Below are positions 11,496 through 27,707 of a stretch of 64,000 nt of DNA, in pieces. Both the position numbers and the translations under genes were made by a program. The stretch is from Firmicutes bacterium CAG:341 (GTDB taxonomy: Bacteria > Bacillota > Clostridia > Oscillospirales > Oscillospiraceae), in NCBI GenBank assembly GCA_963631875.1, contig CAVGSO010000001.1, positions 16,494 to 80,493 on the forward strand, read 5' to 3'. The notes beneath the pieces were generated by a model that was given only the letters and a program-made list of their open reading frames with translations, searched no databases and was not told the origin of the DNA. The stretch's first letter is position 1. Every line of letters starts with the position of its first letter.

Positions 11496-11795
11496 TTATT
11501 CGATGGTCAGCAGGCCGACAAAGCCCGTCATTTCAAAGACCTCCATGACCATCTTGCGGACGTGGGTGAGCGTGAGGCTGCCGCCCTTTTTGGCCATGGC
11601 CATATAGAGACGCTTGATGATGCGCAGTCCAGCGCTGGAGACGTATTCCAGATTTTCCATGTTCAGGACAATCTTGTCGAAGCGTTCCGCCGTCTGCATG
11701 AAGATGGTTTCGACGTCGGGGGAGGTGATGGTGTCGAGGCGGCCCTCCAGCACAAGCTCGCCCTCCGAGCCGCGGTTAATGAGTTTTACGTTCAT
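11496..11795 (-). CDS. STAS-domain anti-sigma-factor antagonist (SpoIIAA/RsbV-like)
   Basis: 99 aa. Motif NLEYVSSAGLRII with the conserved phosphorylatable Ser. AAGGAG RBS. Its ATG overlaps the TGA of the VirB4 gene (ATGA at 11792-11795). Confidence 0.85.
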   Translation of the reverse strand: MNVKLINRGSEGELVLEGRLDTITSPDVETIFMQTAERFDKIVLNMENLEYVSSAGLRIIKRLYMAMAKKGGSLTLTHVRKMVMEVFEMTGFVGLLTIE

Positions 11796-14700
11796 TGTTC
11801 TGCTCCTTTTTCCTTATGCGCGGTGCGCTGTCTGCGGTTGTAGAGGACGAGATCCTCCAAGGTGATGTCCACGACGACCTCGTCGAAAAGCTCCATGGTT
11901 TCGATGGGCGTCGGCATGTCGATGTCGCCGATGTTGGCTTGCAGGAACGCCACGATGTCCATGCCCTCCTCGGTGATGAGCGGCGGCTGTTCGCTGCTCT
12001 CCGGCTCGGTCGTCTCCGGGGTGGGAAACTCCGGCTCGGGTATCTCCGCCGGGACGGAGATAGGTTCGGGGGTGGGTTCGGGGATGACCTCGGGGACGGG
12101 TTCGGGGATAGGCTCGGGCGTGGGGACGACCTCCGGCGCAACGGGTGCGGGCGCTTCCTGCACGGGTGCGGCGGGTGTCTCCTGTGCGGGCGCGGCGGGA
12201 ATGTCCTTCATCCGCGCCGCCACGGCAGCGTCCACGCTGCGCTGGATTTCACGCAGGAGTGCATCGTAGCTGAAGCGTCCCAGCAGCTCGGACATGGCAC
12301 TCTCCGCGCTCGCGGGCGCGGCGGGTGCGGGTGTCTCCTGCACAGGGGCGGGTATCGGTGTCGGTGTTTCCGCTGCGGGTGCGGGTGCGGGCGCGGGCAC
12401 AGGCTCGGCGGCTTCTTCCTCGAAGGAGAACGTCACGGCGGGCTTGTGTGCCGACTTCGCGGCGGCCTTGGCCGCTTGCAGCGCGTCCTCGCTCTCCGCG
12501 TCCGTCTCCACGAACGTAACAGCGGCGCGGCGCGGCGCGGCGGTCGGGGCGACGTCGAGGTCCTCCTCGCCCCAGCGCTTGCGCTTGCTGTCGAGGTGCT
12601 TTTCGCGGCTGGCGCCGACGACCTCCTCCCATGTCCGCTGTCCCTCCTCGCCGGAGAAGTAGCGGCTTTGGAAGCCACGTTCGTTGAACATGGCGACCAC
12701 GTCCTCCGGGACCTCGACACGGAACGTGGAGCGGCTGGTGGCGCTCATGACGGTGAACGCCTGACCGCGCGGGGCGGTCGTGATCTGCTCCTGCTCGACC
12801 TCGTTGATGCCGCCCGCCTTTTCATAGAGCTTGCAGAGATCCTGAATGTCGTTGGGCGCGAGGGCGAAGATGAAGCTGTACTGGCAGGCGTTGATGATGG
12901 CGGTGGACTTGCGGGCGATTTCCTCGCTGCCGACGAAGTCCTTGATGTTTTGGGTGATGACGATCTGCATGCCGTTGTACTTACGGATACGCTTGGCGAG
13001 CTGGAACATGAAGTCGAGGGCGACGGGGAACTTGGTGTCGATGAAGACGTGCGCCTCGTCGATGACGACCACGATTTTGCGGTGCAGGCCGTAGCGCGTG
13101 TTGTAGTCACGGTTTTTGATGATCTCGTTGTCGATGTACTTGAGTACCAGCAGCATCTGCGCGTTGGCGATGGTGCTGTTGCGGTTGGAGATAAGGCTCT
13201 GGAAGTTGAAGACCGTGAAGTTCTCGTCCGTGGTGACGGTGGACGGGCCGTTCCAAATGTTCGCGTTGCGGCCGCCCGTGGAGAACTTGGCGATATAGTT
13301 CATGAGGGTGCGCAGGATGGTGCGGATGTACTCGTTGTCCGTGCGCTGGAACTCGGAGAGGACGGTGTCGTAGAGGTCGTCGAAAATGGGGTAGTCCTCC
13401 GGGTGGAGGCGGCTCAAATCGCTCTCGCCCGTGATGCCGCGGTTGGTATACATACGGTCGATGAGGCTGTTGAGGTACTCCATGGCGTCCTTGTCGCAGT
13501 CGGGCAGGATCTGACGGAAGAATTCCTCCAGGAATTGCAGGTGCGTGGCGTAGCTGCCGGAGACGGTGCTGCCGTCCGACTCGTCATCGTCGAGGGCGGT
13601 GATGATCTGGAACGGGTTGAGGCGGCCGAACTGGGCGTTGCCGACGTTGATGAACTTGCCGTGCAGGTTCTCGGCCAGCTCGGTGTATTCGTTTTCGGGG
13701 TCGAGGATGAAGATCTTGCAGTCGTCCGCCGCGAGGTTCGTCAGAAGGCTCTTCGTGGCGTAGGACTTACCGGAGCCGGACTTGCCGACGATGACCATGT
13801 TGGAGTTGACGCGCTCACTGTCGCGGCGGAAGAAGTCGACGAAGACGGGGACGCCCTGACTGCTGCCGAGCTTGATACCGCCGACGTCGGAGACGTGGGC
13901 GTAGATCCACGGGAAGCAGGCGGCGAGGGAGTTGCTGGGGATGCCGCGGCTCTGGCGGGACATGGGGTCATAGCCGCTGACCTGCGAGCCGATGAACGCC
14001 TGCATTTGGTCGAACTCCATGTTGTTCAGGCGGAAGCCGCTCTCCTGATAGTAGCGGCGCACCGTGCGCTTCATGTTGGCGATGACGGTACGGTCGGACT
14101 TGGGCGGCTGGGGAATGGTGGTGTCGGCGCGGGTGGCGGCAATGTCGTAGACGGTGACGTAGATATTGGCCTCAAGGAGCGATTCGTTGTCCTGCTGGAG
14201 TGTGGCCAGCAGCTCGCCGAGCGTGTCGATGTGGCTTTGCAGCTCGATACGGCGAGAGTCCACGCCCGTGGCCATGAACTGACCGCGCAGCTCCTGAAGT
14301 GAGCGGTCGATACCGCGGATGGCCTTGCTGCGCTCCATCGGGCGGCACTTGACGACGACCTTCGTGCCGGGCATGGACATGACGCCCGCGAGCCAAGCGT
14401 CACCGACGACGGTGGGATACGTTACGAGACGCATATTGTGGGTGATGATGCGGTTGATCTCCACGGTGCGCGCCTTGACATCCACCGTCTGCGGCATGGC
14501 CCACGCGGCGTAGTCCTCGGGGACGAGCTTTTCAATGTCGTGTTCGTCGAAGTCAAGCTGGTTGGTGTAGCGCAGGAAGACGGCCAGCTCCTTGTCGTTC
14601 AGAAGCTTGGGCGACATCTCCGCGCTGCGCAGTGTGCTGAGGGCGGACTGCACCTGATTGTGGAGCTGGCGCTTGTCACTCTCGAAGAGGACGAGGTAGT

Positions 14701-27265: not shown

Positions 27266-27296
27266 ACTCGGTGTTTCCTCCTCATGCCGCACCAAA

Positions 27297-27707
27297 TCAG
27301 AGCTTTTTGCGGATGGTGAGGATATTCTTGCCGTCCTCATACGAGTATTCAACATCGTCCATGTTCTTCTTGACGAGGAAAATGCCGAGGCCGCCGATTT
27401 CGCGGGATTCGGCACTGGCGGTGACGTCTACGTCCTCGCGGTCGAGGGGATTAAAGGGCTTGCCGCGGTCGAGGAAGCGGATGGTAACCGTGGGCGGGTC
27501 GCCGCCCGCGTCCACGTCCACCTCCGCCTCACCCAGCTCGGGGTGGTAGGCGTAGTTGGCGATGTTGACGAAGATCTCCTCGACCGCCAGCTCGACCTGC
27601 ATTTGAACCTTCGGCGAGCAGCCGTACTTTTCAAGCTCCGTGCCGATGAAGTCGTTGACGGTCGTCAACTGGTTGACCTCGGCGGGGACACGCATTGTTT
27701 TCATCAT
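27297..27707 (-). CDS. RsbW/SpoIIAB-like anti-sigma-factor serine kinase (HATPase_c_2)
   Basis: 136 aa. N-box AVEEIFVNIANYAY, G-box IGGLGIFLVKK. AAGGAG RBS. Confidence 0.85.
   Translation of the reverse strand: MMKTMRVPAEVNQLTTVNDFIGTELEKYGCSPKVQMQVELAVEEIFVNIANYAYHPELGEAEVDVDAGGDPPTVTIRFLDRGKPFNPLDREDVDVTASAESREIGGLGIFLVKKNMDDVEYSYEDGKNILTIRKKL

Follow-up and report, generated by a model that had tools for sequence, protein, structure and literature searches.

What does a STAS protein, with its serine kinase and its phosphatase, do inside an operon that encodes a secretion machine? The question is raised by a 64 kb stretch of Firmicutes bacterium CAG:341 (contig CAVGSO010000001.1, positions 16,494 to 80,493), hereafter the window, whose minus strand carries the genes of a type IV secretion system (T4SS) together with four regulatory genes: a STAS antagonist, an RsbW/SpoIIAB-type serine kinase, a PP2C phosphatase and an extracytoplasmic function (ECF) sigma factor. 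The original prediction had read these four as a complete partner-switching module wired into the secretion locus, as in the btr locus of Bordetella, and Pfam and NCBIfam searches of the window's open reading frames (ORFs) confirm all four genes at their predicted places. What is known of the control of type IV secretion concerns mainly transcription. Here, we showed that the STAS gene is a core gene of a widespread T4SS-like family, whereas the sigma factor is present in only part of it. The best explanation, which we hold with moderate confidence, is that the kinase and the phosphatase switch a STAS output that gates the T4SS, and that the sigma factor is a separate layer.

At least 329 species-representative gut and rumen genomes, from Oscillospiraceae, Ruminococcus and Lachnospiraceae, encode relatives of the window's type IV coupling protein (T4CP), and 80 of these loci were compared. 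Synteny was scored with tblastn and hidden Markov models (HMMs). The census of 50 T4CP-anchored loci is blind beyond g1461, the large gene that follows the STAS gene, and STAS-anchored loci were later added to view the region downstream of it; the whole comparison set holds about 100 related loci, numbered here with an L. Locus types are counted among the 12 distinct types that have at least 6 kb beyond the STAS gene. A STAS protein is called generic when it comes from a free-standing kinase/STAS/PP2C operon unrelated to any T4SS. The contigs of L016-L019, L021, L029 and L085 are titled as Bacteroidaceae, Paludibacteraceae, Barnesiella or Desulfovibrio piger bins, which for such metagenome-assembled genomes is probably a binning or labelling error.

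All 53 loci that extend past virB4 have the STAS gene directly behind it, with gaps of -16 to +58 nt and a product of 99 to 106 aa (6 of the 53 are counted as adjacent though they lie beyond the distance cutoff or are rearranged). In the window the two genes are coupled as had been predicted, the TGA of virB4 overlapping the ATG of the STAS gene in the letters ATGA, and this is the sole STAS gene in 64 kb. The census gives a conserved core made of the pilin, g489, T4CP, g315, g713, VirB4, STAS and g1461. Within the cluster the STAS protein is the third most conserved product, behind the two ATPases (mean pairwise distances of 0.25 for T4CP, 0.34 for VirB4, 0.44 for STAS and 0.60-0.65 for the membrane parts). 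A neighbour-joining tree groups the T4SS-linked STAS proteins in a single clade that excludes the generic clostridial ones.

The protein also has the features of a kinase substrate. It consists of a single domain, with a conserved phosphorylatable residue at the start of helix 2 as in partner-switching antagonists, and it scores above the cutoff of TIGR00377, the anti-sigma factor antagonist family. The predicted phospho-serine context VSSAGL is indeed there, within the motif YVSSAGLR at residues 51-58, and Y51, S53, S54, G56 and R58 are invariant in 55 orthologs. The putative phospho-acceptor is Ser54, which we take to align with the phospho-serines of SpoIIAA (Ser58) and RsbV. The AlphaFold2 model (pLDDT 92.7) is a compact 99-aa fold with no added tail; its best Foldseek matches are kinase-bound RsbV and SpoIIAA (TM-score 0.91-0.93), and it superposes on RsbV at 1.0 A.

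The other two partners have intact catalytic motifs in the window. The kinase has the three boxes of a GHKL kinase (N, EEIFVNIANYAY, residues 43-54; G1, DRGKPF, 80-85; G2, GGLGIFL, 105-111). It falls below the RsbW and SpoIIAB equivalog cutoffs of NCBIfam and is thus a member of the family, not an ortholog of either protein; a sequence search of the PDB with it gave no match. The SpoIIE-domain phosphatase shows the motifs GGDFYD, DVSGKG, TDG and DDIT, including the metal-binding aspartates. Its two predicted transmembrane segments are found as hydrophobic stretches at residues ~13-35 and ~195-222, and these leave an outside loop of ~160 aa, shorter than the ~190 aa first proposed. The linker that had been called HAMP-like has only partial NCBIfam matches, to SiaA and NblS, and no Pfam HAMP match.

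Are kinase and phosphatase linked to the secretion cluster, or do they merely lie beside it in this genome? One or both are found inside the cluster in 8 of the 12 locus types, at either end and in at least five arrangements. Kinase and PP2C form an upstream pair in the window as well as in L015, L017 and L018, whose T4CPs are 91-92% identical to that of the window and which also carry the lipoprotein with a DUF3298 domain that accompanies the pair in the window. The kinase stands alone beside a two-component system in L030, L033, L035, L037 and L085, and L036 has the order histidine kinase, serine kinase, PP2C, sigma factor. Other loci have the genes at the operon's 3' end: L111, L115 and L121 read VirB4, STAS, g1461, two small genes, kinase and PP2C, and L188/L189 read g1461, g376, three genes, kinase and PP2C, on the same contig as the sigma-bearing L016. 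Also found at that end are a PP2C without a kinase in L109; PP2C, kinase and a second STAS gene in L104/L105; and, in L116, the array STAS-kinase-PP2C-PP2C-STAS, opened by a T4SS-type STAS gene, with no STAS gene after virB4. A candidate view that the kinase and PP2C genes are rare, drawn from their presence upstream of T4CP in 8 and 6 of 50 loci respectively, was dropped because STAS-anchored loci place them usually downstream.

The window's kinase has orthologs in other T4SS loci (89% identity in L015, 81% in L188). The kinase and PP2C of L188 (81% and 70%) resemble the window's more than do those of a free-standing pair from Pseudoflavonifractor (72% and 58%). Chance adjacency, taken at about 1% per locus as a rough assumption, was downgraded as an explanation since this orthologous pair lies at one end of the cluster in the window and at the other in L188. 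Kinase homologs outside T4SS loci (64-72% identity) always have their own STAS gene 64-701 bp away. The window's kinase has none beside it; in T4SS loci the STAS gene nearest to the kinase is usually the virB4-linked one, 6.8-13.9 kb off, and in the window and similar arrangements it is the only one. We read this as repeated retention of a kinase/PP2C pair, lacking a STAS of its own, for the STAS of the T4SS. The original prediction had expected STAS, kinase and PP2C genes to co-occur with this VirB4 clade, and so they do: as in partner-switching modules generally, the three genes are linked across genomes, and on comparative genomic grounds their link to the T4SS is well supported.

A related module was seen next to another machine. 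In L099:1-10760, a kinase homolog (67% identical) lies between two STAS genes, directly after contractile-injection-system genes (CIS_tube, Phage_base_V, GPW_gp25 and Tail_P2_I). The arrangement is a hint that Clostridia have modules of this kind on other injection machines too.

The fourth gene behaves differently. The product has the domain content of an ECF sigma factor, regions 2 and 4 only, and its gene does head the pilin/T4SS operon as predicted, 32 nt upstream of the pilin gene. Yet it is no fixed member of the module. It occurs in 15 of 50 loci, and in 29 of 50 a LytS-type histidine kinase (PF06580) and a response regulator stand before the pilin gene instead. It rarely co-occurs with the serine kinase: eight loci have the kinase without the sigma factor (L015, L017, L018, L030, L033, L035, L037 and L085), L023/L186 have the sigma factor with neither kinase nor PP2C on either side, and all four parts are found together only in the window, in L036 and in L016/L188. 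What it does co-vary with is g128, which encodes a small protein and is present in 8 of 8 sigma-bearing and 0 of 3 sigma-less loci of the Oscillospiraceae type, the window's close relatives. No anti-sigma domain is recognisable near the sigma gene. For g128, single-sequence AlphaFold2 gives a pLDDT of 65, there is no Foldseek match below E = 1, and a homolog search returned only one near-identical protein. A 136-aa protein with a g128-like N-terminal pattern is encoded at L107:19027-19437, at the 3' end of a locus without kinase or PP2C.

These patterns bear on the rival that comes first to mind, a canonical switch of the Btr type, in which the kinase would be the anti-sigma factor, unphosphorylated STAS would free the sigma factor, and the STAS gene within the operon would provide positive feedback on T4SS transcription. 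This is the classical role of the RsbW/RsbV and SpoIIAB/SpoIIAA pairs, whose antagonists are the nearest folds of our STAS protein. It is also in keeping with a kinase gene that adjoins the sigma gene or lies close to it in the window and L036, with the same neighbourhood inferred for the ancestor of L101-L103, and with the presence of all four parts in L016/L188. Yet the STAS gene is universal while the sigma gene is missing from 35 of 50 loci, kinases persist in the eight loci that lack it, and it follows g128 and not the kinase. The ECF sigma is the only sigma factor in the 64 kb window, which holds none of SigB or SigF type, so that by gene content there is no cognate group 3 sigma for the kinase to sequester; nor is the ECF sigma a constant partner of the triad, as a Btr-type system would have it. 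The large ECF reclassification (PMC7826278) names no regulator of RsbW, STAS or HATPase type, and none of these words appears in its text. We thus regard the canonical switch as unlikely. The argument that the sigma factor controls the T4SS operon is only positional. On gene content, we would call it a separate and optional transcription layer and not a fixed fourth member.

The analogy with Bordetella (BtrS, ECF sigma; BtrU, PP2C; BtrW, kinase; BtrV, STAS; Bsc type III secretion system, T3SS) therefore stands in one part and falls in another. In both, the triad is encoded with a secretion locus, and the window, like btr, holds an ECF sigma. The differences are that the window's machine is T4SS-like, belongs to monoderm Clostridia and is known from its genes alone, where that of btr is a T3SS; that the STAS gene is embedded after virB4 and universal; that the sigma factor is optional; and that the PP2C is a transmembrane sensor. 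Since the sigma factor is inconstant and kinase-bearing relatives do without it, the Btr label would describe only a resemblance in logic, and the wiring of kinase to ECF sigma is not supported by the genomic comparison. BtrU, BtrV and BtrW themselves act on T3SS secretion and not on transcription, the triad working at secretion or translation and not as a plain anti-sigma switch (PMC8256260). Among the targets that had been proposed for the STAS protein, the apparatus rather than the sigma factor fits the data best.

How might such a switch work? The serine kinase would phosphorylate the STAS protein at Ser54, and the PP2C would dephosphorylate it once the loop outside the cell has sensed a signal from the envelope or from contact; in the window the DUF3298 lipoprotein, a possible co-sensor, may assist. 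The output would be one phospho-form of the STAS protein, binding the cytoplasmic face of the machine and gating its assembly or substrate transfer post-translationally. The likeliest target would be VirB4, the co-translated partner. Four observations point that way: the translational coupling of the two genes, the ATPase-like conservation of the STAS protein, a correlation of STAS distances that, though weak, is highest with the VirB4 core (rho 0.62, partial 0.44), and a conserved C-terminal module of VirB4 behind an acidic linker. The acidic tail noted in the original prediction is real. It is a proline-rich linker at residues ~970-1215 (19% D+E, 17% P) that is highly variable, 200-600 aa across orthologs, and it is followed by a motif of ~50 aa (residues ~1215-1276, window 11795-11980) conserved in 55 orthologs, with the pattern [FM]D[IL]M..L ... 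[VI].[DE][IV][ST][LV]E[ED]L..Y. The ECF sigma would be an interchangeable transcription layer with a housekeeping-type promoter, perhaps partnered by g128, and in most other lineages the LytS-type two-component system stands in for it. One may go further and propose, tentatively, that the energy centre formed by VirB4 (or VirB4/T4CP) contains the STAS protein as a stoichiometric subunit switched by phosphorylation. A surface-sensing PP2C and a serine kinase would thereby turn the machine on and off post-translationally, upon envelope or contact signals, and the machine would be a chromosomal, relaxase-less, effector-delivering T4SS with a VirB2-like pilus that is widespread among gut and rumen Clostridia.

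Several observations weigh against a kinase/PP2C-switched STAS output that gates the machine. Four of the 12 locus types (L023/L186/L187, L190, L107 and L192-195) have no local kinase or PP2C. The close kinship of both proteins to generic modules means that they may serve other STAS proteins as well. In the deletion remnant of L101-L103 (e.g. L102:8389-12628), kinase and STAS genes are intact and all machine genes are gone; what is left reads kinase, then an ORF that fuses the N-terminal 110 aa of the sigma factor with the C-terminal 49 aa of VirB4, then STAS and finally a truncated g1461. This lineage is very abundant in the pig and human gut, its STAS protein (P0182) being found on more than 450 contigs, and the remnant hints at a role of kinase and STAS beyond the machine. 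The rate correlation between STAS and VirB4 is confounded by gene adjacency. Finally, in an exhaustive phmmer search of 1.84 billion representatives with the STAS protein, none of the 150 best matches is a VirB4-STAS fusion (in P0274, STAS is fused to an unrelated enzyme).

Some of these points favour a second rival, that the STAS protein is a phosphorylation-independent ATPase subunit, as MlaB is for MlaF, and that kinase and PP2C are general modules only loosely linked to the cluster. MlaB is likewise a small STAS protein encoded with an ATPase and bound to it, and so offers a precedent for STAS-ATPase contact. The window's STAS protein has a weak match to NCBIfam mlaB (E 5.5e-4) and a Foldseek TM-score of 0.69-0.78 against MlaB, its kinase and PP2C are 58-72% identical to those of generic modules, and the four locus types without either gene are as such a subunit would predict. 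However, MlaB has no kinase or phosphatase, which loci of the window's family do have, and the similarity in fold is lower than to the kinase substrates. The invariance of the S53-S54 pair would be unexpected, as would the T4SS-locus kinases and phosphatases that usually lack a STAS of their own, the T4SS-type STAS gene that directly precedes the kinase in L116, and the finding of kinase and/or PP2C on the cluster strand in 8 of 12 types against the chance level assumed above. We hold this account to be doubtful, less probable still than a canonical switch. It is very improbable that the T4SS takes the STAS protein as a substrate, or that the protein gives secretion-coupled feedback in the manner of BtrA, an anti-sigma factor that is itself secreted. 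All that speaks for this is the location of its gene among the structural genes of the operon and the precedent of Bordetella (cited in PMC8256260); against it stand its high conservation, typical of a machine or regulatory part and not of an effector, its tail-less fold and the kinase/PP2C linkage, which suggests a cytoplasmic role.

A STAS protein that is set by a kinase and a phosphatase and acts on something other than a sigma factor would be in good company. In Vibrio the output is the STAS protein SypA (PMC8256260), and CapK/CapS is a pair of kinase and STAS-like protein without a sigma factor (PMC13373217). SypE/SypA, SiaABCD of Pseudomonas and CapK/CapS all have a STAS protein set in this way on a non-sigma target (PMC8256260, PMC13373217), and the window's PP2C has a weak, full-length-style match to SiaA. 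Those three systems have no link to a T4SS, whereas the target proposed here is a secretion ATPase or apparatus. The RsbU/RsbV/RsbW and SpoIIE/SpoIIAA/SpoIIAB modules of B. subtilis have their three protein families in common with the window; the differences are that the locus has no group 3 sigma factor, and that its STAS gene lies 7-14 kb from the kinase and is coupled to an ATPase gene.

The features of the cluster are collected in Table 1. They fall into two runs of genes separated by a spacer of 488 nt, in which the hairpin and the promoter match lie. The first (33634-24270) comprises g986, g960, kinase, PP2C and the lipoprotein, with gaps of 31-44 nt; the second (23781-5968) comprises ECF sigma, pilin, g128, g489, T4CP, g315, g713, VirB4, STAS, g1461 and g376, with intergenic gaps of -4 to 136 nt. 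A terminator scan did not call the hairpin that follows the first run. Most sigma genes of related loci have TTGACT-17-TATAAT upstream. Sigma leaders of 100-150 nt (window 23782-23920; L016, L021, L039, L051, L052, L073, L076 and L077) carry lineage-specific conserved elements, GAAAGTGGGACAAAA right before the start codon in Oscillospiraceae and GCACCCAAA in the Ruminococcus type; an Rfam scan of the window found no family, and no known riboswitch in the sigma leader.

Table 1. Features of the secretion cluster, in the order of transcription. Positions count from the first letter of the window.
Feature	Positions	Strand	Description
g986	30674..33634	-	First gene of the upstream operon; paralog of g960 (one cluster family); effector-like candidate
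g960	27751..30633	-	Paralog of g986; ends 43 nt before the kinase gene
RsbW/SpoIIAB-type serine kinase	27297..27707	-	136 aa; HATPase_c_2 (PF13581) E 6e-26, 91 bits against a cutoff of 27
Membrane sensor PP2C	25646..27265	-	539 aa; SpoIIE (PF07228) E 1e-50, 172 bits
DUF3298/PdaC-like lipoprotein	24270..25601	-	PF11738 E 6.5e-13; lipobox LAAC; closes the kinase-PP2C operon
GC-rich hairpin	24218..24239	-	GGGGAGGGGC-TTT-GCCCCTCCC; just past the lipoprotein stop codon, without a T tract; read from the sequence
Sigma-70 (housekeeping) type promoter match	23922..23949	-	TTGACG-16-TATAAT, 11/12, best in 19 kb; upstream of ECF sigma
ECF sigma	23299..23781	-	160 aa; Sigma70_r2 and r4_2, TIGR02937; first gene of the pilin/T4SS operon
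VirB2-like T4SS pilin	22868..23266	-	PF18895 E 8e-14; TrbC; NCBIfam Mbov_0395 family
g128	22345..22731	-	Small all-helical soluble protein; candidate sigma partner
g489	20879..22348	-	Secreted or membrane-anchored T4SS component, type unassigned; N-terminal hydrophobic segment; conserved in 54 loci
VirD4-type T4CP	18802..20826	-	T4SS-DNA_transf E 2e-55; NCBIfam CD1115 family, 298 bits, above cutoff
g315	17846..18793	-	Bitopic T4SS component; transmembrane segments at both ends; conserved in 71 loci
g713	15668..17809	-	Polytopic, several transmembrane segments; VirB6 position; conserved in 63 loci
VirB4 ATPase	11792..15622	-	NF045975 (Mbov_0397 family) 527 bits; P-loop_TraG; N-terminal transmembrane region
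STAS	11496..11795	-	99 aa, single domain; PF01740 E 3.6e-13; TIGR00377 64 bits against a cutoff of 53
g1461	7095..11480	-	Large, N-terminally anchored; PLAT-like domain (PLAT E 7e-5)
g376	5968..7098	-	Lipoprotein; final cluster gene; homologs in L104, L188 and L190

The machine has the parts by which a T4SS is recognised: a VirB4, a T4CP, a polytopic VirB6-like protein (g713) and a bitopic VirB8-like protein (g315), the roles of the last two being assigned from topology and synteny alone. A homolog of g1461 lies 3' of the STAS gene in nearly all loci that reach that region. In some strains of an abundant human-gut lineage, g713 and virB4 are split or replaced (L194:3500-9974, L189:3500-5900) and STAS and g1461 are intact, which suggests that in some of the population the machine is still decaying. 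The VirB4, T4CP and pilin-like protein belong to the same NCBIfam families as those of the integrative and conjugative elements (ICEs) of Mycoplasma and of the C. difficile CD1110/CD1115 T4SS, which are MPF-FATA-like. Unlike these, the window's locus is chromosomal, has large effector-like neighbours and lacks a relaxase and an integrase: neither domain was found in any cluster ORF or elsewhere in the 64 kb. For the Mycoplasma ICE and CD1110/CD1115 elements, neither the STAS gene nor the regulatory modules of the window's family are described. A megablast search of a plasmid collection with 16.6 kb gave no match, and in place of the relaxase and integrase or replication genes that accompany the T4SS of a conjugative element, the flanks are housekeeping. 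We conclude that the locus is a chromosomal member of a large T4SS-like cluster family in gut and rumen Clostridia.

A VirB2-like pilin is a core gene in these monoderm clusters (window 22868-23266; pilins of L015-L094). This is contrary to a 2025 paper on Patescibacteria T4SS, which states that virB2 homologues are absent from Gram-positive T4SS classes (PMC12102498).

The genes g960 and g986 (window 27751-33634) look like candidate T4SS effectors; neither product has a Pfam match, a predicted signal peptide or a transmembrane segment. In other loci, the large products of genes immediately upstream of the cluster have eukaryote-like domains, PI3/PI4-kinase and Fam20C-like in L049:2153-6181, and ABC1/Pkinase-like along with a C39-like peptidase in L033:25-4035. 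The rest of the window is housekeeping (holB, PSP1, thrC, lysC, asd, fakA, PBP, mreC and maf). The plus strand encodes, 3 kb away from the cluster and past holB, PSP1 and a hydrolase gene, a LytTR response regulator and an Agr-type (HATPase_c_5) histidine kinase (36820-38840). Downstream of the cluster, window positions 1-6000 have a G+C content of 0.52-0.59, against 0.60-0.67, and encode an acetate-kinase-like protein, a GT2 glycosyltransferase, GtrA and a PMT_2-like protein.

Full-text literature searches returned no description linking a STAS protein or anti-sigma factor antagonist to VirB4, to T4SS or to conjugation, and a review of STAS-only proteins does not mention T4SS. What is new here, as far as gene content and conservation tell, points to partner-switching control of a secretion system in which the STAS gene is a core gene of a monoderm T4SS. 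If true, a phospho-switch encoded with VirB4, and probably bound to it, would be a new control point of T4SS. Among partner-switching modules it would be the first linked to a T4SS, as well as a clear case in which the STAS protein, and not a sigma factor, is the conserved output. Given the wide spread of the family, the lack of a relaxase in the window and the large neighbours with eukaryote-like kinase domains found elsewhere, the switch may govern an uncharacterised secretion system of abundant gut commensals, with at least 329 species-level genomes carrying it.

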